A model generated the notes under the pieces. That model had not been told where the DNA came from. It saw only the letters and a list, made by a program, of their open reading frames with translations, and did no database searches. Shown here one piece after another: positions 27,106-39,055 of a stretch of 64,000 nt of DNA; position 1 is the first letter of the stretch, and each line of letters starts with the position of its first letter. The translations under genes and the position numbers were made by a program. The stretch comes from Bacteroidota bacterium. Its GTDB lineage: Bacteria > Bacteroidota > Bacteroidia > Chitinophagales > CAIODY01. The stretch lies in NCBI GenBank assembly GCA_046051225.1, contig JBJOOR010000009.1, forward strand, positions 40,835 through 104,834. The letters are read 5' to 3'.

Positions 27106-27650
27106 TTCGATTTATATTCTTCAAATTTTTTATAAAAATTTTCTTTGAATAAACATACAATCATATTATCAATATAAACACCATCTTTAAATAAAGATTC
27201 TTTGTATCTGCCTGTTACTTCGAAGCCAATTTTATTTTGATCGAAATGTAAAGTTTTTTCATTTGTTGATAAAACATAACCATACATCATGTGCATATTA
27301 AATTGTTGAAACAATAAATCGCAAAAAGAAAAAATGGCATCAACTGCATGACCTTTTCCCCAGAAATTTTTATTTCCAATTGTCCAACCAACTTCACAAT
27401 TTTTATTTATATGATCAATTTTCATTGCCGAAATAACTCCAATAGCCTCATTTGTTTCTTTATCGCAAATCACTAATTTCTTTTTTGAATTATCTGTCAT
27501 TTGCTTTTCGTACCATTTTTTCTGTTCGAACATACTTACAGGAAAACTATTCACAAATGAAACTCTAATTTCGGGGTCAAAATTCCAATCTCTAATCATC
27601 GAAATGTCCGATTCTTCCATAGCTCTTAAATAAGTTATTCTTCCAATCAT
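27096..27650 (-). CDS. GNAT family N-acetyltransferase
   Basis: RimJ/RimL-like layout of 184 aa, with W.GKGHA in the acetyl-CoA binding region. Overlaps the MaoC start by 10 nt. Confidence 0.75.
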   Translation of the reverse strand: MIGRITYLRAMEESDISMIRDWNFDPEIRVSFVNSFPVSMFEQKKWYEKQMTDNSKKKLVICDKETNEAIGVISAMKIDHINKNCEVGWTIGNKNFWGKGHAVDAIFSFCDLLFQQFNMHMMYGYVLSTNEKTLHFDQNKIGFEVTGRYKESLFKDGVYIDNMIVCLFKENFYKKFEEYKSKWK

Positions 27651-27664
27651 AATGTGTTATTATT

Positions 27665-28294
27665 TTATTGAATTATTCTAATCATTTCAAATGCTTCGGC
27701 ATATCTGGTTGCTATTTGCGCACCTCTTACTCTTGCCAAGCCAAATATAAATTCATCATCTACATAGCTTCTGAAATTTTGTGTTTTATAGCATCGCATA
27801 GCTTCTGCTTTTTTGTCTACATTTTCTTTTTCTAATTTAAAAAATGAAGTGGTTCTAAATTCAACCGTATCCCACGGTAAATCATAACCATAAATAGTTA
27901 GGTGCTTGTAAGCTCTAATTCCTTCGCTATAAATTGCATGATGATCTTGATGCAAAGCATTTGAGCAAGGCATAAAAATAATATCAGGCTTTAGTTCGCT
28001 ACGTAGCCTTACCATATCTTCTAATATTTCTTGCCTTACGCTACTAAATTTTCTAACTTTATAAGGCATTATAATTAAGTTTTCGGGCTTAATGCCTAAT
28101 ACTTTTGTAGCGTCTTTTACTTCAAGTTCTAACGCATTTTTTGGAAACCCTGCTGGCACCGATTCTTCGCAAGTAGAAAAGGCTACATAAAATACTTCGT
28201 TGCCTTCTGCTATTAATTTATTAATAGTGCCTCCACAACCTAATTCGCCATCATCAGTATGTGGTGCTAAAACTAAAATTCGCTTGTTGATCAT
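27665..28294 (-). CDS. PIG-L/LmbE family deacetylase
   Basis: LAPHTDDGELGCGG (PHxDD) and HQDHH metal-binding motifs. Confidence 0.85.
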   Translation of the reverse strand: MINKRILVLAPHTDDGELGCGGTINKLIAEGNEVFYVAFSTCEESVPAGFPKNALELEVKDATKVLGIKPENLIIMPYKVRKFSSVRQEILEDMVRLRSELKPDIIFMPCSNALHQDHHAIYSEGIRAYKHLTIYGYDLPWDTVEFRTTSFFKLEKENVDKKAEAMRCYKTQNFRSYVDDEFIFGLARVRGAQIATRYAEAFEMIRIIQ

Positions 28295-28324
28295 TTTATT
28301 TTTTTGATATTGAATAATGCAAAG

Positions 28325-29347
28325 TTATTTTTTTATAAAAACTTTTACTAATAAATTCCATACTTGATTTGCAAATGGGCGCAGAATATATTTTTCGGAA
28401 ACACCAGACAATTCGAATACACCAAATCGGCGTTTAAAACTAGATATGCCTTCAATAAATTTTGCATCGCCATTGCTTTCATCTTTTGATGTTTGCCCTA
28501 AATTATAAAATAGAAATCCCCTATCCTTATAAATTTGAATAAGCTGCCATTGGGTATAATTGCCTGCTCCAACCGAATTTTTTAAAGAGCCAGCAAATGC
28601 ATAATAAGCTGTATTGCCGTATACGGTTACAAATGCACCAAACAATGGAATTTCATTGTGATAAGCAATATAAAGTTCAACCGCATTAAAGCTGGATAAC
28701 TTTGAATAATAAAATTTAATAAAATCGTAATTAGGACCATTTTTTTCTTGATGACTATATGTGTTTTTTAAAAGCGAAATGAATAGTTCAATATCATTAA
28801 CTTGAATTAATTTTACACCTTCTTTTTCACCTTTTCTAATGTGATTGCGATGTTTAGCATGCACATTATTCCACAATTCTTCTTTTGTTTTCGATAAATC
28901 TACAATGGCAATATTATATTCTTTTTTAGTAGTAGGATTAAATAAACTATTTAGTGTGATTGGTCGGCCATAATAGTTGCCATGTATTGCTGTTGCTGGG
29001 TTTGATGCCGCAACATATTTTTTTAATTCGGCTTCTATTATGTTCTTAATTTCATCTTTTCTAGTATTCATTATTTCAAGCAAAATAATAGGTTCGCCAA
29101 TAAAGCTAATGCTTTGGCTAATGCTTCTAATAAAAGTTGGTAGGCGTTTACTTTCCCATTTATAAAATTTATAAGCAGCTATTAATTTGCCATTTTCAAT
29201 TAGATGTAAATAGATAGATTGATGTTGAAAAAATTGCTGTACCTCATCGCTATAAGTAGCCTGAATTAAATTGCCGTTCGATTTGGCTAATTCATTCCAT
29301 GCTGCTTCGTCAAGTGGTTTGTTTTCAGTTATTTTGATGTCAATCAT
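28325..29347 (-). CDS. FemAB-like / GNAT-fold acyl- or aminoacyl-transferase
   Basis: HRNHIRKGEKEGV, AYYAFAGS and SSFKRRFG resemble the FemA/FemB/FemX peptidoglycan-bridge transferase family. Confidence 0.65.
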   Translation of the reverse strand: MIDIKITENKPLDEAAWNELAKSNGNLIQATYSDEVQQFFQHQSIYLHLIENGKLIAAYKFYKWESKRLPTFIRSISQSISFIGEPIILLEIMNTRKDEIKNIIEAELKKYVAASNPATAIHGNYYGRPITLNSLFNPTTKKEYNIAIVDLSKTKEELWNNVHAKHRNHIRKGEKEGVKLIQVNDIELFISLLKNTYSHQEKNGPNYDFIKFYYSKLSSFNAVELYIAYHNEIPLFGAFVTVYGNTAYYAFAGSLKNSVGAGNYTQWQLIQIYKDRGFLFYNLGQTSKDESNGDAKFIEGISSFKRRFGVFELSGVSEKYILRPFANQVWNLLVKVFIKK

Positions 29348-29365
29348 TTAGTAATATTCTAATCG

Positions 29366-30544
29366 TTATTCAGAAAAGTGGTTTTGTTTTATTTCACTAA
29401 AAAGCGAAATCAATTTTTTTTGTTCGTTTTCCCAATTCAATTCTTCTTTTGCTTTTTGCAAATTTTCTTTCCAAATATGGGTAGCCATTATTTTATTAAA
29501 GCCATTAAGGTAAGCATTTTTTTCGTCGGGGTTTACACAAATGCCAACATGGTAAGGTTCTACAATATTAATATATTCGGGCTGTTGGGTGGCTAAAATT
29601 GGAATACCCGATATAATATAATCGAACAATTTATTATCTAAAGCATACCAATACGATAAATCACTTTTATTCCAAGTAGGTACTAACCCCACATCTGCCG
29701 ATGCCAACGTTTCAGGTACTTTTTGTAATGGTACATAAGGATGATAAAAAATATTGGAATATCCCTTTGTAGCCACATAATTAAAAATTCCTTTTTTGCC
29801 ATCATTATCGCTTGCCATCATAATGAAAGCAATATTGGGTTGATTGCCAAATTCATCAATTACTTGTTCTAAATTTAAAGTTTTAAGATAAACACTACCG
29901 CCAATAAAAATTAAAATTTTTGTTGAATCAGGCAAGTTAAAATGTTTTCGAAAATAATTGTTCGACTCGTTTATTGATGCTGATTTTGCTGGTATATTTC
30001 GTAATACAACGGCTTTGTTTTTTAACTGCAAGTATTCGTTTAAATTGTCGGCTAATGATTTACAAACGGTTATTACATAGTCCGTTAAATTTGCATTTTT
30101 TCTTTCTCTAATAATTTCATATTTTCTAACCAAATACGATTTTATCATCAACCATTTGCTGCTATAAGATGATACATTTAGCGGCCAAGCATGAAACAAT
30201 TCTCGTGATTCGTAAACTAATATCACATTTGGTTTCAACTTTTTTATTTCTTTGCCAATATGATAATTTAGTTGATTATGGCAATACAATACATCAAATT
30301 CAAATTGGTTAATTAGCGTTTTTACTATTTGTTTTCGGGCTGTAAAATTCTTTGGGTCGTGCAGTGCAGCGCCATCTAAAAGCCTGTGTAATGGTATGCT
30401 TTCAAATGTATCTTCGGTAGGTTTATTGGTTTCTATTTTATGAATTAGCGTTAATTCAAATCCATTATCACGTAATGAAAAAATTTCATTTCTGGCTCGT
30501 CTATCATTGTAGATATGGTTTTCGAGCAACATTAATATTTTCAT
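29366..30544 (-). CDS. glycosyltransferase (GT-B fold, GT4-like)
   Basis: 392 aa with a two-Rossmann layout. C-terminal ...ADVGLVP...NKLFDYI..G.P... resembles the GT4 E-x7-E region. Confidence 0.7.
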   Translation of the reverse strand: MKILMLLENHIYNDRRARNEIFSLRDNGFELTLIHKIETNKPTEDTFESIPLHRLLDGAALHDPKNFTARKQIVKTLINQFEFDVLYCHNQLNYHIGKEIKKLKPNVILVYESRELFHAWPLNVSSYSSKWLMIKSYLVRKYEIIRERKNANLTDYVITVCKSLADNLNEYLQLKNKAVVLRNIPAKSASINESNNYFRKHFNLPDSTKILIFIGGSVYLKTLNLEQVIDEFGNQPNIAFIMMASDNDGKKGIFNYVATKGYSNIFYHPYVPLQKVPETLASADVGLVPTWNKSDLSYWYALDNKLFDYIISGIPILATQQPEYINIVEPYHVGICVNPDEKNAYLNGFNKIMATHIWKENLQKAKEELNWENEQKKLISLFSEIKQNHFSE

Positions 30545-30546
30545 TT

Positions 30547-31176
30547 TTAAATAATGTGTTTTACTTTTTCAACAAATAATAAAAATAAATTAGGCTGTAA
30601 TAATCCTGTAAATACAAATCCATAAACAGCACCCCAAAAATGCGCATCATGGTTAATATTATCTCCTTTTCGTTTTCCTAAAAAATATTCGGCAGCTAAA
30701 TAAATTACACCAAAAACTATCGCTGGCATTCTAATACCCATCATTAAAATATCTGATGTGGGCGAAATTAAAATATTAGCAAATGTAATGGCTGCTACTG
30801 CACCACTTGCGCCTATTGATGCATAATACGGATTGTTTCTGTTTTTAATATAAGTAGGAATTTCCGAAACAGCAATAGCAGAAATGTACAGAAATAAAAA
30901 ATACAAATTTCCTTTTGCACCAAACATATCGTTGAAATAATAATTCAAATTTGAACCAAATGAATAAAACACAAACATATTTAAAAACAGATGCATAAAA
31001 TCGGCATGAATAAAGCCTGATGAAATAAACCGAAACCATTCTAAAGGATTGCGATTTATTAAGTAAGGAACAAATTTATTTTTATTGAAAAAAGTTTCAT
31101 TTCCGAATGCAATTAATGAAGCCAAAATGGTAATACCTAGAATAAGCCACATATAGGAAAATGAAAATGCCATCAT
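30547..31176 (-). CDS. rhomboid family intramembrane serine protease
   Basis: Six TM helices, catalytic GASGAV serine motif, and downstream H..GA..G. Confidence 0.85.
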   Translation of the reverse strand: MMAFSFSYMWLILGITILASLIAFGNETFFNKNKFVPYLINRNPLEWFRFISSGFIHADFMHLFLNMFVFYSFGSNLNYYFNDMFGAKGNLYFLFLYISAIAVSEIPTYIKNRNNPYYASIGASGAVAAITFANILISPTSDILMMGIRMPAIVFGVIYLAAEYFLGKRKGDNINHDAHFWGAVYGFVFTGLLQPNLFLLFVEKVKHII

Positions 31177-31177
31177 G

Positions 31178-32278
31178 TTATGCTGCTTGGTTTGTAGGCT
31201 TTTCGCCCAATTGTTTTAATAATTTAAAATGCGAAGCTATGGCGGTTGTAAAATGTTCGATATTTCTATATTCCAATCCATATTCTTCGGCAGTTTTTTG
31301 CACTATTGGTGCTACTTCCGCATAGTGTGTATGGCAAATTTTCGGAAACAAATGATGTATTACATGCACATTTATTCCGCCCAACATCCAACACCAAAAT
31401 TTACTTTTTCGGGCAAAATCGCCAGTAGTTTCAACGATGTGAATAGCCCAATTTTTTTCAACATTTCCATCTTCATTTTTGTGCGGAAAGCTTGTGCCTT
31501 CGGTTAAATGCCCTGTTTGAAATGTGAAAGCCAACATCATACCCAACATAGCATGACCTAATAAAAATACAGCAAGAATTTGCCAAAATGAGTAGGGTAG
31601 TAGTAGGGTTGGAAGTATTAAGGTGTAGGAATAATAAAATAATTTAGTGCTGATCAGTTTAAACCATTCGGCAGCTGTAGGTTTCATGCCTGTTTGATAA
31701 TTTTTTAGATGAGAAAAAATCCAAAAATCTTTCGAAAAAACATAGTTGATGGTAAGTACACTATAAATCAAAGGGGCATATAAATATTGATATTTAAAGG
31801 CTGGTTTCCATTTGTCTTCCATCGTAAATCGTAAAATGCCATGCCCTTCGCTACTTGTATCTGCACCATCAATATTTACATAACTATGGTGTGCTGTGTT
31901 ATGCGAATAGCGCCACAAGTATGAGTTTACGCCAATTAAATCTAATGAAAAGGAGAGTAAATTATTAACCCATTTTTGTTTGCTTACAGCGCCATGATTA
32001 GCATCATGAGCAATATTAAATGCAATAAATAAATGGGTAAATAAATGTGCAAATGCTAACATTAATTTTATGTAGGTAGGCAAGTTTAGAAACATTATTG
32101 CAAACCATGTAGCAGCCCATGTTATCATCCAGAAAGCAATTTTAAACCACATTCTGCCATCGGCTAAATAGCCATTTGGTTTATTTTTAAAATATTCATC
32201 TAACCTTGTTTTTAAGGTTTTCATGAAATCTGAATTATTATTCTTTGTAAATTTTACTTTAATATTTGTTGACGACAT
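31178..32278 (-). CDS. membrane fatty acid desaturase
   Basis: Three histidine boxes: HDANHG, HNTAHH and HVIHH. Confidence 0.85.
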   Translation of the reverse strand: MSSTNIKVKFTKNNNSDFMKTLKTRLDEYFKNKPNGYLADGRMWFKIAFWMITWAATWFAIMFLNLPTYIKLMLAFAHLFTHLFIAFNIAHDANHGAVSKQKWVNNLLSFSLDLIGVNSYLWRYSHNTAHHSYVNIDGADTSSEGHGILRFTMEDKWKPAFKYQYLYAPLIYSVLTINYVFSKDFWIFSHLKNYQTGMKPTAAEWFKLISTKLFYYSYTLILPTLLLPYSFWQILAVFLLGHAMLGMMLAFTFQTGHLTEGTSFPHKNEDGNVEKNWAIHIVETTGDFARKSKFWCWMLGGINVHVIHHLFPKICHTHYAEVAPIVQKTAEEYGLEYRNIEHFTTAIASHFKLLKQLGEKPTNQAA

Positions 32279-32422
32279 CTATATTGAATATGAATGAAAG
32301 TTAATTTTCGCAAAGAAAATAAAAAAAGTATAGAATTAAAATGATAAGTAATACTTTATGAAAAACTAAAATTCACAATTACCATGTTAGTGAAATTATG
32401 TAACGAAAAAACCTTTTTAAAA

Positions 32423-32430
32423 TACTTTTG
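32423..32430 (+). promoter_or_regulatory. -7 promoter box TACTTTTG
   Basis: TAnnTTTG match 45 nt upstream of the clpP ATG. Confidence 0.45.
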
Positions 32431-32475
32431 TTCTACATTTCGGAAATATTAAATTAAAATAAAAACAAATTAAAT

Positions 32476-33153
32476 ATGAAAATTCAATCAGAATTCAGAA
32501 AGTATGCAGTCCATAATTTAAATATGAGCGGCAACACAATTGATAGTTATATGAAGAAATCTGTAACTAATCTTACACCATACATTATAGAAGAACGACC
32601 ATTAAATGTAGCTACAATGGACGTTTTTAGCCGATTAATGATGGATAGAATTATTTTTATGGGCGAAGGTATTAATGATTATGTTGCTAATATTATTCAA
32701 GCGCAATTGTTGTTTTTAGAATCTACTGACGCTAAACGTGATATTCAAATTTATGTAAATAGCCCTGGTGGTTCGGTTTATGCTGGTTTAGGTATTTATG
32801 ATACTATGCAATATATTAATCCAGATGTAGCTACTATTTGTACAGGTTTGGCGGCTTCTATGGCGGCTGTTTTATTGTGTGCCGGTGCACCTAAAAAACG
32901 CACAGCATTAAAACATAGCCGTGTAATGATTCATCAGCCATTAGGCGGTGCCGAAGGACAAGCAAGTGATATTGAAATTACTGCTCGTGAAATTTTGAAA
33001 TTGAAAAAGGAGTTGTACGATATTATTGCTAATCATTCAGGCAAAACATATAAAGATGTTGAAAAAAATAGCGATAGAGATTATTGGATGACAGCTGATG
33101 AAGCCAAAGAATATGGAATGATTGATGAAGTGTTGATTAAAAAGCCTGTATAA
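32476..33153 (+). CDS. clpP: ATP-dependent Clp protease proteolytic subunit
   Basis: Catalytic Ser context GLAASMAAVLL, His context MIHQPLGG, plus the Bacteroidota-type N-terminal extension. Confidence 0.95.
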   Translation: MKIQSEFRKYAVHNLNMSGNTIDSYMKKSVTNLTPYIIEERPLNVATMDVFSRLMMDRIIFMGEGINDYVANIIQAQLLFLESTDAKRDIQIYVNSPGGSVYAGLGIYDTMQYINPDVATICTGLAASMAAVLLCAGAPKKRTALKHSRVMIHQPLGGAEGQASDIEITAREILKLKKELYDIIANHSGKTYKDVEKNSDRDYWMTADEAKEYGMIDEVLIKKPV

Positions 33154-33175
33154 TTCTATCAAATATTTTTAAAAA

Positions 33176-33220
33176 CAAAAAAGCGAAGGCAACTTAAAAG
33201 TTTGACTTCGCTTTTTTGTT
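33176..33220. terminator. bidirectional stem-loop terminator after clpP
   Basis: AAGCGAAG (33181-33188) pairs with CTTCGCTT (33206-33213). A-run upstream, T-run downstream. Confidence 0.75.
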
Positions 33221-33310
33221 TTTTAATATCAGCCTACTTCAATAGTAGCTATATTAAAAATTTACTGTGGGATTTTGGGCTTAAGAGCTTACAATGTATA
33301 AATGTTAACG

Positions 33311-33868
33311 GTTGTGTGTTTTATAGAGTAAGTTGTGTTTGTGTATTTGTTGTTAGTTTTTAATTTTCATTTTCTGATTTTTGATTAACGATTGTTGTCG
33401 CCACTTTTCAATTTTAATAGGTTATTAATTATTTTGGGTTGTGTTATTGTGTTGTGTGTTTTGTGTGTGTTTGGTTTTTCAAAATTGTATTTCTAATTTT
33501 TGGTAGCGATTGTTGTCGCCATTTTTATTTTAATGATTACCTACTATTCATAAATTTCTTGCTTCCATATTTTAGCGATTGTAGCCGCTATACTATAGTT
33601 TGGGTTAAATCAAAAATTGGGTTTCAGTTTTTTTGTTCACTTAAATTATTTTTTTTATTGCATGTATGTAAGGTTGTTTTAAAAGGTTAAAATAGATTTT
33701 CTGATTACTAAATTCGTTACGTTTCTTTCATGTTTTAGATGCAGCAATTGTAGTTGCTTATAATTTGATTTAGGTTAAATAATAGGGTTAATAGTTTTGG
33801 TGAAGCAAAGTTTTTTTGTTTCGCTAATTTTGATTTGGCGATTGTTGTCGCAATAAAATGGGTTTAAT
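33311..33868. repeat. array of five same-orientation hairpin-containing repeat units plus two TG-rich tracts
   Basis: Core copies: 33387-33403 (ACGATTGTTGTCGCC), 33504-33522 (AGCGATTGTTGTCGCC), 33573-33590 (TAGCGATTGTAGCCGCTA), 33741-33758 (GCAGCAATTGTAGTTGCT), 33837-33854 (GGCGATTGTTGTCGCAAT). Blocks 33371-33418 and 33490-33534 are near-identical. TG-rich tracts at 33311-33356 and 33436-33474. Confidence 0.8.
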
Positions 33869-34363
33869 TTAATTTTGAGATAAGGTATTGGTTTGATGTA
33901 ATAAACCAACTGGTCGGCCATTAAGCATTGTAAAGCAAAATATCTGCTGCCCTACCAATATTTTTGTTTCGCTTTCATATTCAAATCCATCGTATAGCGG
34001 TATGTTGTTATCTTTCACGGCATATAAAAACGAAAACAATTCTTTATCTTTTTTGAAATAATAATGATAATCATCTTTAGTAACCATTATTTTATTAGCA
34101 TCTTTTTTCTCTAATAATTCAGGATGTTTTTGCGTTTGTTGAATGGCTTGTAATGAGCTGGAATTATTGACGGGAAAATAAGTGTAAGCAAAATTTACAT
34201 ACAATTCGGCTATCATTGACATTTGATTTATTGAGCCAAAAATGCTGCTCGATTTAATTTTATGTTTTGCTGATTTATCTGAAGCCATTGTAGCAAAGCT
34301 TATTAAAAAGCAAAATACCATAGCCATACTTCCTAATGACAGGAATGAAATTTTTCTTAACAT
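33869..34363 (-). CDS. hypothetical secreted protein
   Basis: 164 aa with an N-terminal signal-like hydrophobic segment. No recognisable motif. Confidence 0.5.
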   Translation of the reverse strand: MLRKISFLSLGSMAMVFCFLISFATMASDKSAKHKIKSSSIFGSINQMSMIAELYVNFAYTYFPVNNSSSLQAIQQTQKHPELLEKKDANKIMVTKDDYHYYFKKDKELFSFLYAVKDNNIPLYDGFEYESETKILVGQQIFCFTMLNGRPVGLLHQTNTLSQN

Positions 34364-34579
34364 GATGTTGGGTTATAATTTATGTTTTCTTGTGTTTTGT
34401 GTTATCAATTTTTTCTTTCGATTGATGATACAAAGATATAAGCAGCCATAGCCCTTTCGCATCAGTATCATCTTGCAAATTGATACGTGATAAAACTTAA
34501 AGTAAATAGTTATCAGTTTTTAGTTGATAGTAACTAATTACTAAAAGCTAATAACTCATCCATGCATAATTTATTTATC

Positions 34580-34587
34580 TATATTTG
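34580..34587 (+). promoter_or_regulatory. -7 promoter box TATATTTG
   Basis: TAnnTTTG match 22 nt upstream of the ATG at 34610. Confidence 0.45.
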
Positions 34588-34609
34588 AAGCCAATAATTA
34601 ATACAATTA

Positions 34610-35347
34610 ATGCAACCATTATTTCATTTTGGAAGATATTTAATGATGCTAAATGCCACATTCAGCCGCCCCGAAAACCGCAGAATGTATAGCCGTGAAA
34701 TTCTTCGCCAGATAGTTTCAATGGGCATAGGCTCATTGGGTATTGTATGCGTAATTTCATTTTTTTTGGGCGCTGTTACCACAGTGCAAACAGCCTATCA
34801 ATTAGTATCGCCATTAGTACCATTATATGTAATTGCTTCTATCGTTCGTGATTCATCAATTTTAGAATTATCGGTAACCGTTATATCTTTAGTATTGGCT
34901 GGTAAAATTGGTAGCAATTTGGCTTCCGAATTAGGCACCATGCGCATTAGCGAACAAATTGATGCTTTAGAAATAATGGGTGTAAATAGTAAATCGTATT
35001 TAATTTTACCCAAAATATTAGGCGCTTTAGTTGCCATTCCATCTTTAGTAATTATATCTACAGCCGTTACTATTTTTGGTGGCTATTTTGTTACACTTTT
35101 TACCAGCATACTTACACCCGAACAATATATTTATGGCTTACACGATTCGTTTGTGGGCTTTAATGTTACATTCAGTTTAATAAAAGCATTTACGTTTGCG
35201 TTTTTAATTTCAACTATTGCTTGTTATTATGGTTATTATACCGAAGGCGGCGCTTTCGAAATAGGCAACAGCAGTACAAAATCAGTAGTATGGAGTTGTA
35301 TTTTTATTTTATTTAGCGATTATGTTTTAGCACAATTAATTCTTTAA
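34610..35347 (+). CDS. mlaE: MlaE-family ABC transporter permease
   Basis: 245-aa polytopic protein. SIVRDS..LEL and MRISEQIDALE..GV match MlaE/Ttg2B permeases. Confidence 0.85.
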   Translation: MQPLFHFGRYLMMLNATFSRPENRRMYSREILRQIVSMGIGSLGIVCVISFFLGAVTTVQTAYQLVSPLVPLYVIASIVRDSSILELSVTVISLVLAGKIGSNLASELGTMRISEQIDALEIMGVNSKSYLILPKILGALVAIPSLVIISTAVTIFGGYFVTLFTSILTPEQYIYGLHDSFVGFNVTFSLIKAFTFAFLISTIACYYGYYTEGGAFEIGNSSTKSVVWSCIFILFSDYVLAQLIL

Positions 35348-35359
35348 TAATATTTTTAG

Positions 35360-35986
35360 ATGAACTCAATTCAACAGCTATTAACTGATATTCAAACCAT
35401 CATTCAAGCCCAATCTTTATCACTAATTGATAAGGATATTGCATTGCAAAAAACAAGAAAATTGTATGAAGAAATCAGCGCTTTATCAACTCATAAAATA
35501 GTTGAACATCAAATTGAAAAAGATAGACTTTTTCAGGAAATACCGCAGAACATCTTTCATCATACAAATTCCTATCCTGTTGGAGAGGATAAAGTTGAGG
35601 TTATAAAAATAAATGATGAAAGAGGTTCGAACTTTCCTATTGAAGAAACTGTAAAAACAGAAACTGCAAAACACGAATTAAATACAGAAAGTTTAAACGA
35701 TATTTTAAATAAAAACAGAAAAACAGAATTGGCTGATAAGCTGGAACATTCACCCATAAAGGATTTAAAAGCAACCATTGGCTTTAATGATAAATTTAGT
35801 TTTATACAAAATTTGTTTGCAGGCAATGATGCAGCTTATAAAATGGCAGTTGACCAACTCAATTCGTTTACTTCTAAAGCCGAAGCCGAACAATTAATAA
35901 CCGAACTTTCAAATCAAAATAAATGGAATGAAAACGAAGAAATTTCAGAACATTTTAAAGAATTAATAAATCGTAAATTTTTATAA
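35360..35986 (+). CDS. hypothetical protein
   Basis: 208-aa ORF between mlaE and panB. No motif recognised. Confidence 0.45.
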
Positions 35987-35997
35987 AAAATAATTTT

Positions 35998-36819
35998 ATG
36001 AGTACCGAAAGAAGAATGAATGTAAATAAAGTTACTACGCATGTTTTACAAGCTATGAAAGAACGTGGCGAAAAAATAAGCATGCTTACTTCGTACGATT
36101 ATTCGTTAGCAAAAATTGTGGATGCAGCAGGTATTGATGTGATATTGGTAGGCGATTCGGCAAGTAATGTAATGGCTGGCTACGATACCACATTGCCTAT
36201 CACTTTAGACCAAATGATATATCATGCATCATCGGTAAATCGAGCCGTAAAACGTGCATTAGTAGTGGTAGATTTACCTTTTGGTTCATATCAAGGCAAT
36301 TCGAAAGAGGCACTTCAATCATCTATTCGTATCATGAAAGAAAGTGGCGCACATGCTGTAAAAATGGAAGGCGGTGTTGAGATAAAAGAATCAATAGTAA
36401 GAATATTATCGGCAGGTGTACCAGTAATGGGGCATTTGGGTTTAACGCCACAATCTATTAATAAATTTGGTACTTATACTGTAAGAGCTACAGAAGAAAA
36501 AGAAGCCAAAAAATTAATTGAAGATGCCTTATTATTAGAAGAATTAGGATGCTTTAGTATTGTGCTTGAAAAAATACCAGCGGCTTTAGCTGCCGAAGTA
36601 AGCAAGCAATTAAAAATACCTGTAATAGGCATTGGTGCTGGTGCTGATGTGGATGGACAAGTATTAGTATTACACGATATGTTGGGCATTAACCAAGGCT
36701 TTTCGCCACGATTTTTGCGCCGCTATTTAAATTTGTATGATGAAATAAAAACAGCGGTTGGCAATTATATTGAAGATGTAAAATCCGAAGATTTTCCTAA
36801 TGAAAACGAAAAGTATTAA
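35998..36819 (+). CDS. panB: 3-methyl-2-oxobutanoate hydroxymethyltransferase
   Basis: [26 protein letters not shown] and GHLGLTPQS are canonical PanB motifs. Confidence 0.95.
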
Positions 36820-36907
36820 GTTTAAAATACCAAATATACTTAATTTCCATTTTTACAATTTTATGCAATATTGGAGTTGATTATTTGGTGTAATTTTGTA
36901 AAAAAAA

Positions 36908-37420
36908 ATGACAATAGCTGCAATTCTTTCATTTGCTGGTAAAATACTTGAACCAGTAATTACATCAATTAGGAAAAAATATTTTTCTCAACCTAAATTA
37001 GATTTTAGGTTTGTATTTTTTTCAGGTTCTAATTCGCTTATTTTCCCAAATAATGTTTTCTCAAAAATCACATGGAAATATCAAATTGAGGTTTATAACA
37101 ATTCCGAACATTCTGCACATAAATTAAAAATTATTCGACCTAAAGAGAATGAAATATTTACTTAAAAATCTTTTATCGATGAGTTGAAATCAATAAAACC
37201 AATTGAAAAAGCAACTTTTGACATTGAGTTTTACAAAAAGGTAAATAATAGTACAAAAGAAAATATAGTTAATACTCAAAGTAATACACCTGAAATTTTA
37301 GCAACAGAAAAAATAATTTTTCAGTATGAAAACATTAAAGGAAAAGCATTTTTTACAGAGTTTTCATTCAATAATAAAATCGGGGAACAAAATGTTTATT
37401 TGAGTAAAGTTTCTGATTAA
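36908..37420 (+). pseudogene. small hypothetical gene split by a single in-frame TAA (37163-37165)
   Basis: ORFs 36908-37165 and 37184-37420 are in the same frame. The second has only a TTG start. The read-through peptide runs ...ENEIFT*KSFIDELKSIKP... Confidence 0.4.
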
Positions 37421-37426
37421 CTCCCA

Positions 37427-39055
37427 TCACACCTGCATCACACCAACATTATAGCGTTTCACTTCGGGGTTGTGGTTTGCCATTTCAATGCCCATTGATA
37501 AAATTTTTCGGGTATCTAATGGGTCAATAATAGCATCTACCCACAATCGTGAAGCAGCGTAATAAGGCGTTGTCTGGCTGTTGTAACGGTCGGTAATGGT
37601 TTTCAGCATTTCCTTTTCTTCTTCGGGTGTGATTTCTTTTCCTTTAGCTTTCATGCTTGCCACTTGTATTTGCAATAAAGTTTTAGCTGCTTGTTCGCCG
37701 CCCATCACCGCAATTTTTGCAGTAGGCCATGCTACAATTAATCGTGGGTCGTAAGCTTTACCACACATGGCGTAGTTGGCTGCACCATAGCTATTTCCAA
37801 CTACCACAGTAAATTTCGGTACAACAGAATTGCTCATGGCATTCACCAGTTTTGCACCATCTTTAATAATGCCACCATGTTCGCTGCGGCTGCCCACCAT
37901 AAAGCCTGTAGCATCTTGCAAGAACACCAACGGAATATTTTTCTGATTGCAATTCATAATAAATCGAGCTGCTTTATCTGCCGAATCGCTGTAGATAACG
38001 CCACCCATCTGCATTTCGCCTTTTGCACTTTTGGTTACAATTCTGTTATTCGCCACAATGCCCACACTCCAGCCATCAATTCGGGCATAGCCGCAAATAA
38101 TTGTTTTGCCATAATTTTGTTTGTATTCATCCAGCTCACTATTATCTACCATTCGCTCGATGATTTCTCTCATGTCGTAAGGTTTGCCATCGGCAGGAAA
38201 TAAACCGTAAATTTCTTTTTCATCTTTCAATGGTTTCACACTTTCAATGCGGTCGAAACCTGCATTGCCTCTGCGTCCCATCTTGTTTACTAATCGGCGA
38301 ATTTGTTTCAAACACTCTTCATCATTTTTCATTTTGTAATCCGTTACACCACTAATTTCTGTTGTAGTAGTTGCACCGCCAAGCGTTTCTACATCAATAT
38401 TTTCGCCTATTGCAGCCTTTACCAAAAACGGACCAGCTAAGAAAATACTTCCAGTGCCTTCTACAATCAATGCTTCATCACTCATAATTGGCAAGTAGGC
38501 ACCACCTGCCACACATGCACCCATGATAGCTGAAATCTGCGGAATGCCTTTGCTGCTCATCACTGCATTGTTTCTAAACATTCTGCCGAAGTGTTCTTTA
38601 TCAGCAAAAATATCTTCTTGCAATGGCAAATAAATTCCTGCGCTATCCACCAAATAAATTATCGGAATAAAATTTTCCATCGCAATTTCTTGCGCTCTTA
38701 AATTCTTTTTACCAGTGATGGGAAACCATGCACCACTCTTTACAGTCGCATCATTTGCTACCACTAAACATTGTCTGCCTTCGATATAACCCAACACCGA
38801 AATTACGCCACCAGCAGGGCATCCGCCATGTTCGGCATACATTTCATAACCCACAAATGCACCCATTTCAAACTGCGGTTTGTTTTTGTCGAGCAACAAT
38901 TCTATTCTTTCTCTTGCAGTTAATTTTCCTTTTTCGTGCAATTTGTCAATGCTTTTTTGTCCGCCGCCTAATTGAATTTTTTCAAATCGTTTTTTTGCTT
39001 CGCTTAAAAGCAAACGCATGGCATCATCGTTTTTATTGAAAGTTAAATCGGTCAT
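37427..39055 (-). CDS. acyl-CoA carboxylase carboxyltransferase (beta) subunit, methylcrotonyl/propionyl-CoA type
   Basis: 542 aa with two crotonase-like CT halves and motifs such as VVANDATVKSGAW and IMGACVAGGAYLP. Confidence 0.9.
   Translation of the reverse strand: MTDLTFNKNDDAMRLLLSEAKKRFEKIQLGGGQKSIDKLHEKGKLTARERIELLLDKNKPQFEMGAFVGYEMYAEHGGCPAGGVISVLGYIEGRQCLVVANDATVKSGAWFPITGKKNLRAQEIAMENFIPIIYLVDSAGIYLPLQEDIFADKEHFGRMFRNNAVMSSKGIPQISAIMGACVAGGAYLPIMSDEALIVEGTGSIFLAGPFLVKAAIGENIDVETLGGATTTTEISGVTDYKMKNDEECLKQIRRLVNKMGRRGNAGFDRIESVKPLKDEKEIYGLFPADGKPYDMREIIERMVDNSELDEYKQNYGKTIICGYARIDGWSVGIVANNRIVTKSAKGEMQMGGVIYSDSADKAARFIMNCNQKNIPLVFLQDATGFMVGSRSEHGGIIKDGAKLVNAMSNSVVPKFTVVVGNSYGAANYAMCGKAYDPRLIVAWPTAKIAVMGGEQAAKTLLQIQVASMKAKGKEITPEEEKEMLKTITDRYNSQTTPYYAASRLWVDAIIDPLDTRKILSMGIEMANHNPEVKRYNVGVMQV

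Follow-up and report, generated by a model that had tools for sequence, protein, structure and literature searches.

Conserved hairpin-forming units in a long intergenic spacer beside an orphan secreted-protein gene: a candidate non-coding element of freshwater Bacteroidota

The RNAs CsrB, RsmY and RsmZ of Gammaproteobacteria repeat one loop motif in short hairpins on an RNA with little further structure and an intrinsic terminator at its end, and they are built from modular units of variable copy number. CrcZ and CrcY of Pseudomonas sequester Hfq/Crc via A-rich AAnAAnAA motifs. We know of no protein-titrating or multi-hairpin scaffold RNA from Bacteroidota. The present analysis concerns a 715-nt intergenic spacer with five copies of a short hairpin-forming unit, located between clpP and a small secreted-protein gene, here called p164, in a 64-kb stretch of Bacteroidota DNA (64,000 nt; the whole stretch is referred to as the window). 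An earlier note on this DNA had proposed a multi-hairpin non-coding RNA (ncRNA) or an array of binding sites. From its sequence and that of its relatives, the element is a new, narrowly distributed and locus-specific candidate non-coding feature tied to p164.

Between clpP (32476-33153, plus strand) and the convergent p164 (33869-34363, minus strand) lies the longest intergenic region of the window, and no open reading frame (ORF) conserved across lineages was found in it on either strand, in agreement with the earlier description of a gene-free spacer. The sole frame coinciding between lineages comprised four codons (MKET/MTKT). Peptide genes were rejected, as the tiny frames through the repeated cores (AIVVA in the plus and ATTIA in the minus sense) varied in their starts, lengths and downstream sequence. 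A clpX pseudogene was rejected as well, since tblastn of ClpX against the window gave no match in the spacer. An Rfam search, which the earlier note had suggested as a check, matched no family in 32900-34500; cmscan at E<=10 of this region and of two related loci (L096 and L102, described below) returned solely sub-threshold terminator-like matches.

The five 14-nt cores pointed out in the earlier note were all present on the same strand and in the same orientation, starting at 33388, 33506, 33575, 33744 and 33838. The units are listed below with the core sequence as read on the plus strand and the score of a covariance model (CM) built from the units.

33372-33409, minus strand: unit 1, core 33388-33401, ACGATTGTTGTCGC; CM 40.3 bits
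33490-33527, minus strand: unit 2, core 33506-33519, GCGATTGTTGTCGC; CM 40.9 bits
33559-33596, minus strand: unit 3, core 33575-33588, GCGATTGTAGCCGC; CM 35.1 bits
33728-33765, minus strand: unit 4, core 33744-33757, GCAATTGTAGTTGC; CM 34.4 bits
33822-33859, minus strand: unit 5, core 33838-33851, GCGATTGTTGTCGC; CM 44.2 bits
about 33655-33680, minus strand: decayed sixth unit, aligning with an intact-looking unit of a sister lineage, CCGATTGTTGTCGT (columns 519-545 of the whole-spacer alignment)

The core of unit 5 lies 17 nt from the p164 stop codon, and the decayed unit at 33655-33680 gave no CM hit. Further repetition noticed earlier was recovered, namely a tail common to copies 3 and 4 (77% over 22 nt) and recurrent GGGTT/GGTTWA motifs (7 versus about 0.5 expected). 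The blocks 33371-33418 and 33490-33534, around units 1 and 2, were indeed related, although with 41 of 48 positions identical they are not the near-identical copies that had been described.

The CM scan, another check proposed in the earlier note, scored the five units at 34-44 bits and the next match in the window at 15 bits (E=0.27), so that only the spacer units score in the 64 kb; no match was obtained in 615 kb of other Bacteroidota loci. Outside the spacer, the window held two core matches with three mismatches, which is chance level because 3.2 are expected per window. Within the 64 kb and the 615 kb searched, the units are found at one locus only. This bears on the explanation that the array consists of neutral, decaying duplications or of a dispersed repeat, such as repetitive extragenic palindromes (REPs) with their mosaic elements (BIMEs) or a miniature inverted-repeat transposable element (MITE). 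REPs resemble the spacer in placing several short palindromes between convergent genes, where they could affect mRNA 3' stability. They differ in being dispersed in hundreds of copies with alternating orientation in BIMEs, whereas the spacer units occupy a single locus in one orientation, and REP palindromes measure 20-40 nt, compared with 14 nt for the spacer cores. REP/BIME elements were rejected, as no dispersed high copy number was seen in the 64 kb or the 615 kb, and a dispersed repeat of any kind is opposed by the lack of a further copy in either sequence set and of terminal inverted repeats and target duplications.

The start-to-start spacing of the units was 118, 69, 169 and 94 nt, and this irregularity together with a conserved core of only 14 nt excluded a CRISPR array, an option already dismissed in the earlier note; such arrays have identical repeats of 23-50 nt at regular intervals, separated by unique spacers of like length. 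A type III toxin-antitoxin RNA (ToxI-like, with about 34-36-nt head-to-tail repeats just before an endoribonuclease toxin gene) was rejected because the units are not tandem and because the neighbour p164, a signal-peptide protein without family match, lies upstream of the array and not downstream. A phage or mobile origin was rejected from a viral-contig scan, which gave single chance-like matches and no arrays.

The window is identical to a contig from a JGI lake metagenome that is annotated as Bacteroidota. Closer relatives of the locus were found via exact-protein look-ups, and the informative ones via p164. The locus L084 (ClpP 98% identical) showed the same gene layout with a spacer 96% identical. 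The loci L096-L098 and L100, with 69% amino acid identity in p164, had a spacer of about 706 nt with six units, and L102 and L103 (68%) had a window-type spacer. The orthologue of unit 1 was present in L084, L102, L096 and L100, and the variant form of unit 3 was also retained in L096. The units were orthologous one-to-one, the distances between them being shifted by indels (from unit 2 to unit 3 it is 69 nt in the window, 53 nt in L096).

Comparison of the window lineage with that of L096 showed 96-99% identity of the nearby genes mlaE and panB at codon positions 1+2 and 60-64% at position 3; the spacer overall was 80% identical. The 14-nt cores reached 93%. Identity in the 15-nt flanks of the cores was 79% on the plus-upstream side and 51% on the other, and dropped to 20-35% in some inter-unit stretches. 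Unit 2 (33490-33519) and the region of unit 5 (33810-33852) were 95-100% identical, with the 30 nt before unit 5 conserved at 100%. These results show purifying selection on the units, each as a module of its own. The local duplication is clear from the blocks around units 1 and 2, one unit present in L096 has decayed in the window lineage, and copy number is five versus six, all of which would suit neutral decay. The cores are nevertheless 93% identical where synonymous sites are at about 60% and neighbouring spacer segments at 20-50%, and five of five units are orthologously retained across lineages. As core conservation lies far above the synonymous baseline and the units are retained as orthologues, neutral decaying duplication, the outcome that the earlier note had named as refuting its proposal, was rejected; together with the dispersed-repeat version, we regard this explanation as highly improbable.

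On the minus strand, the five units shared one predicted fold, with a stem of 4-6 bp closing a hexaloop (CAACAA or CUACAA) and a fold energy between -3.7 and -6.1 kcal/mol. Unit 1 was predicted to form UGGCGA-CAACAA-UCGUUA (-3.8 kcal/mol, 6-nt loop), unit 2 a fold of -6.1 kcal/mol (z -4.2) and unit 3 one of -5.7 kcal/mol, and in the minimum free energy structure of the minus strand, units 2, 3 and 4 appeared as isolated hairpins amid mostly unpaired RNA. The mean fold z-score was -2.7 on the minus strand versus -1.9 on the plus strand, where the predicted loops were 4, 4, 8, 7 and 4 nt long. The change from GCG..CGC to GCA..TGC in copy 4, which had been read as compensatory, proved to be a genuine evolutionary double substitution within one orthologous unit: GCGATTGTTGTCGC in L096 corresponds to GCAATTGTAGTTGC in the window, a double change from G-C to A-U at pair 3-12, with three A-U and two G-C pairs among the orthologues of unit 4. 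Such a double change is expected of a hairpin and not of a homodimer DNA site. Where just one side of an otherwise intact stem had changed, the minus strand showed G·U and the plus strand A·C; this was seen at position 14 of unit 1, at pair 4-11 of unit 3 and at the outermost pair of unit 4, which is A-U in the window but G·U in L084. Base composition was skewed more strongly in the spacer than in any other long intergenic region, with A 0.48, U 0.24, C 0.19 and G 0.09 for the minus strand. Several further same-strand intergenic regions of the window were likewise A-rich in the sense of their genes, presumably the transcribed strand.

RNA hairpins might instead form on the plus strand (GCGAU-UGUU-GUCGC, with a U·G closing pair) in short transcripts or in a long antisense RNA to p164. 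The U5·G10 pair is possible in 18 of 18 unit instances, for units 2 and 5 the plus-strand hairpins match the minus ones in stability (-5.9 and -6.3 kcal/mol), and in the window the hairpin plus T-run past units 1 and 2 looks terminator-like. These T-runs are, however, not conserved in L096, units 1, 3 and 4 acquire A·C mismatches through their substitutions, and the predicted folds vary among the units. The U/G-rich sense is also atypical of the presumed transcribed strands in the window, and the strong clpP terminator bars read-in from the left. We thus consider plus-strand RNA hairpins quite unlikely.

The spacer elements other than the units, together with p164 and its promoter box, are as follows.

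33165-33229, both strands: bidirectional intrinsic terminator, G+C stem GCGAAGGCAAC/GTTTGACTTCGC, an A-run to its left and a T-run to its right
33232-33249, minus strand: small conserved stem-loop beside the terminator, GCUACUAUUGAAGUAGGC on the minus strand, present in the RNAalifold consensus
33267-33316, minus strand: unique conserved block containing GUUAACAUUUAUACAUUGUAAGCUCUUAAGCCCAAAAUCCCAC as read on the minus strand, 90-95% identical between window-type and L096-type spacers
33311-33356, minus strand: TG-rich tract 1 (minus strand CA-rich), with weak conservation, 55-65% between lineages
33428-33470, minus strand: TG-rich tract 2, 95% identical between lineages
33805-33824, minus strand: short conserved hairpin, GCGAAAC-A7-CUUUGC on the minus strand, 80-100% identical between lineages
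33869-34363, minus strand: p164, an orphan ORF for a secreted protein of 164 aa, whose mRNA would carry the spacer as its 3' untranslated region (3'UTR)
34431-34438, minus strand: -7 promoter box of p164, TATCTTTG, an exact TAnnTTTG 68 nt before the start codon

The bidirectional terminator of the earlier note was confirmed as two 28-nt arms (33165-33192 and 33202-33229) of 89% complementarity, forming a long helix on both strands, with the G+C-rich stem-loop and the U-run of an intrinsic terminator on each. The adjacent stem-loop at 33232-33249 was 80-90% identical between lineages, and one pair in an extended helix flanking it had changed on both sides from AU to CG. The block at 33267-33316 is a candidate seed or 3'-end segment of a small RNA (sRNA); this block and the stem-loop lie directly upstream of the terminator in the minus sense, a layout as in 3'UTR-derived sRNAs with a conserved seed. 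The two TG-rich tracts align loosely with each other. Tract 2 contains on the minus strand a pure A/C run of 33 nt, AAAAACCAAACACACACAAAACACACAACACAA (33447-33479), the longest A/C-only tract in the 64 kb; this conserved CA tract aligned with the 5'UTR of p164 at a score of 31, which was reached by one of 300 shuffles (mean 21.6, sd 2.7). The hairpin at 33805-33824 includes one G·U pair in the minus sense, where the plus strand would have A·C.

The synteny pointed to p164 and not to clpP as the partner of the spacer. The linkage to clpP that the earlier note had envisaged was not found: among the 80 best clpP loci of species-representative genomes (ClpP at most 82% identical, gene order tig-clpP-clpX), neither shared synteny nor a motif cluster was detected, and relatives with ClpP 91-96% identical had a different neighbourhood from which the spacer was absent. 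In L096 and L102, where the spacer is present, the left-hand neighbour is not clpP but a gene for a 168-aa secreted protein, and the terminator is kept there. As the terminator lies within the conserved block, the spacer and the terminator travel with p164-mlaE-panB. The p164 homologues at 59% and 53% identity had short spacers (at most 340 nt and 194 nt, respectively), and in the one of this 53-59% set with DNA, the 59% homologue, the spacer was without the motif, which bounds the element to a narrow clade. When metagenomes were scanned with the p164 alignment, a single locus came up. The occurrence of the element is limited to a few uncultured lineages of freshwater Bacteroidota.

From the composition, the substitution pattern, the uniform fold and the terminator co-inherited with p164, we lean toward the minus strand as the transcribed one. 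A minus-strand transcript from the stop of the small gene to the bidirectional terminator, one of the options in the earlier note, best fits the composition, substitution pattern and synteny; transcription, strand and binding partner are inferred. The spacer would be the untranslated tail of the p164 mRNA, that is, a 3'UTR of about 690 nt or an ncRNA derived from it. Transcription would start at the p164 promoter (-7 box 34438-34431), run past the stop codon at 33869, near which no terminator occurs, and end at the bidirectional terminator (33229-33165). A terminator scan of the minus strand gave no candidate site in the region, although the main terminator hairpin was missed by it as well. 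The likeness of the conserved CA tract to the p164 5'UTR also favours a single transcription unit. As the minus-strand RNA is A/C-rich and G-poor, it is expected to be largely single-stranded, interrupted by hairpins with stems of 4-6 bp, five in the window and six in the sister lineage, each presenting a hexaloop C(A/U)ACAA followed by an A-rich, CAAAAUYA-like tail. The RNA would also bear the conserved CA tract and the conserved block just before the terminator, the latter possibly yielding a 3'UTR-derived sRNA. Identical loops repeated on a flexible scaffold could serve as a multivalent platform for one RNA-binding partner, which might be a protein (for instance of the RRM-1, KH or cold-shock type) or an sRNA, and binding might act in cis on the fate of the p164 mRNA or in trans by titrating the partner. 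We assign a probability of roughly 40% to this proposal of a long minus-strand 3'UTR or ncRNA displaying repeated C(A/U)ACAA loops as a multivalent binding platform.

Several points weigh against this proposal. The stems are short (4-6 bp, -3.7 to -6.1 kcal/mol), equally stable hairpins are possible on the plus strand via the invariant U5·G10 pair, and the formal covariation across units was indistinguishable from that of shuffles, because the cores hardly vary. The comparison covers about three independent lineages. No exact -7 box occurs on the minus strand inside the spacer, so that an independent sRNA gene is not indicated, and unstructured RNA with more C than G could simply be a loading zone for Rho. 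The better conserved flank of the units, read on the plus strand, matches the -7 box TAnnTTTG, which a function at the DNA level would explain equally well. Minus-strand promoters of the extracytoplasmic function (ECF) type (TAACC ... GCGAC) were considered and rejected, as their spacing, 9-18 nt, was not conserved.

The match of the flank to a promoter box leads to another explanation, in which each module is a plus-strand DNA site consisting of a -7-like box (T[A/G]ATTTT[T]G) and, 0-5 bp further on, a 14-bp quasi-palindrome (GCGAT-N4-GTCGC). At the transcription start the palindrome would serve as an operator. The array would be bound by RNA polymerase/sigma-A and/or a dimeric regulator, and it could drive or regulate transcripts reading antisense into p164, or work as a titration or decoy cluster. 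In the window, exact TAnnTTTG occurred in 33 copies in 6.9 kb of intergenic DNA versus 100 in 57 kb, about 17 of the 33 were correctly oriented and preceded a start codon by 15-75 nt, and most promoters that could be recognized in the window carried this box, which agrees with a role as the Bacteroidota -7 promoter box as far as the sequence can tell; a fixed -33 TTTG was rarely seen with these copies. The exact copies in the spacer are solely on the plus strand, at 33792 and 33825, and the second of these, the exact TAATTTTG at 33825-33832, precedes unit 5 by 5 nt; units 1-4 have boxes with one or two mismatches. The TAATTTTG-like boxes end 0-5 nt before the cores and not 5-10 nt as the earlier note had it. 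The 15 nt on the box side are 79% identical versus 51% on the other, the complete conservation of the 30 nt before unit 5 is typical of promoters, and the centre of the cores, TTGT(T/A)G, is asymmetric and nearly invariant. The box-like conserved flank and the perfectly conserved 30 nt before unit 5 are the reasons for which we keep a DNA-level module as the main rival.

On the other hand, neither a downstream plus-strand gene nor a conserved ORF follows the boxes, just the antisense of p164, and five to six tandem promoters 50-170 bp apart without conserved intervening terminators have no obvious use. The sequence after the boxes is T/G-rich, unlike the A-rich leaders past real promoters in the window. 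Unit 5 is without a -33 TTTG at the usual distance, and box matches with one mismatch are common in T-rich DNA. The symmetric double change in unit 4 is predicted by a hairpin and not by a homodimer site, and the variable spacing of the units speaks against cooperative phased binding. Compared with known sigma-A promoters of Bacteroidota (TAnnTTTG), the plus-strand flank of each unit is alike, exactly so at unit 5, but in the spacer the boxes form a tandem array that no gene follows, and most of them deviate by 1-2 mismatches. We regard this DNA-level explanation as possible but doubtful.

The minus-strand platform was then compared with the described RNAs. The architectural likeness to CsrB/RsmZ and CrcZ did not extend to the defining features compared, with no GGA loops and no Rfam hit, and membership of these families is not supported. 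CsrB and RsmZ have (A)GGA loops, whereas the spacer loops are CAACAA/CUACAA on the minus strand and UUGUUG/UUGUAG on the plus strand. RNAs of the CsrB type are furthermore stand-alone sRNA genes with their own regulated promoter, while the spacer appears to be the 3'UTR of a protein gene, and its very narrow distribution is unlike that of CsrB/RsmZ. With CrcZ/CrcY the spacer shares five to six CA-type motifs, its ACAACAA fitting AnAAnAA, and a long CA-rich single-stranded tract. ACAACAA fits seven of the eight positions of AAnAAnAA but lies in a hairpin loop; the motifs of CrcZ are single-stranded, whereas those of the spacer sit in loops closed by a conserved GCGA/UCGC stem, with no Rfam hit. 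To our knowledge, an Hfq/Crc partner is not expected in this phylum. Bacteroides, and by extension Bacteroidota, are reported to be without CsrA and Hfq (PMC13370968).

The 3'UTR-derived sRNAs, such as CpxQ and SroC and the 3'-derived sRNAs of Bacteroides thetaiotaomicron (PMC11697453), resemble the spacer in their position after a stop codon, in a conserved block before a shared terminator and in co-inheritance with the upstream gene; the spacer differs in its length of about 690 nt with an internal hairpin array, which is unusual. As to protein partners, RRM-1 proteins are the sole global RNA binders that have so far emerged in Bacteroidota (PMC11697453, PMC13370968). One of these, RbpB, a global RRM-1 binder of B. 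thetaiotaomicron, prefers single-stranded regions, and its known ligand families are FopS and GibS (PMC11697453). Both ligands are unrelated to the spacer, and FopS, although deposited in Rfam, gave no match in it. A bolder version, which we consider unlikely, would make the 3'UTR scaffold of five to six hexaloops, with CA tracts mimicking the 5'UTR, the first multivalent sponge or assembly RNA of Bacteroidota, titrating a global RNA-binding protein (e.g. RRM-1).

The protein product of p164 gives no functional clue; it is an orphan, beta-rich secreted protein. Its homologues formed eight clusters, none of them annotated, no match above threshold was obtained in Pfam or NCBIfam, and the AlphaFold model (pLDDT, the predicted local distance difference test, 72) had no fold match in the PDB. 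The identities at the three codon positions (80/87/60%) indicate selection in that reading frame. The region upstream of p164 (34364-34520, minus strand) was strongly conserved in L084, L096 and L099, with an inverted-repeat-like TTATCACGTATCAATTTGCA..ATGATACTGATGCGAAAGGG upstream of the -7 box, and the CA-rich conserved 5'UTR contained CATCAATCG, similar to the unit core CAACAATCG.

The spacers of L084 (4179-4893) and L102 (496-1220) were 98% identical, while the adjacent p164 DNA was 79% identical and the left-hand genes differed (clpP versus the gene for the 168-aa secreted protein), with breakpoints at the terminator and at the p164 stop. The 98% identical spacer beside 79% identical p164 and unlike left-hand genes suggests that the spacer recombined as a cassette or that p164 underwent allelic replacement. 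Two NCBI contigs of metagenome-assembled genomes also broke at or next to the spacer, in L085 at 141 nt past clpP and in L099 inside p164; these breaks may reflect assembly trouble from internal repeats or strain heterogeneity at the locus.

On the clpP side, the relatives with ClpP 91-96% identical carried one to three tandem small genes on the opposite strand after clpP, in copy numbers varying between samples (L086-L089, 4355-5014; L093, 1317-1439; L094, 2667-2792; L090-L092, 715-936). Their products combine a double-glycine-type leader (MKN..LELININAMSTVKGG) with the conserved C-terminus GEWWGAGSL. The genes adjoin a TPR-HisKA-receiver hybrid kinase gene and look like an array of precursors of a pheromone, a bacteriocin or a ribosomally synthesized and post-translationally modified peptide (RiPP), without family match. 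Homology of the spacer to these genes was rejected, as sensitive blastn was marginal (best E=0.007) and no matching ORFs occur in the spacer. In other Bacteroidota, GCAATTGTTGA(C/T)GC about 400 nt past clpP (L004, 4581-4604; also L005, L006 and L037) resembles the spacer motif. It is the conserved PFAIVDAT segment of clpX, a coincidence relevant to pattern searches; the relatives' GCAATTGTTGACGC, likewise about 400 nt past clpP, corresponds to the FAIVDAT codons of intact clpX. A replication origin (oriC) was rejected for the region, since no DnaA box TTATCCACA with at most one mismatch occurred at 27272-37990 and the window-wide count was below chance; cumulative GC skew had a local minimum near 32 kb and tracked gene orientation. 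A second long convergent gap of the window, 607 nt in length (36820-37426), lies downstream of panB; JGI annotates two small genes in it (85 and 78 aa), which are without family hits.

Post-transcriptional control in Bacteroidota is poorly understood. If the proposal of a conserved RNA with repeated loops is true, it would provide a concrete ligand with which to fish for an RNA-binding partner. If the DNA-level explanation holds instead, a selected array of promoter-like boxes and palindromes between convergent genes would represent an unusual regulatory layout.

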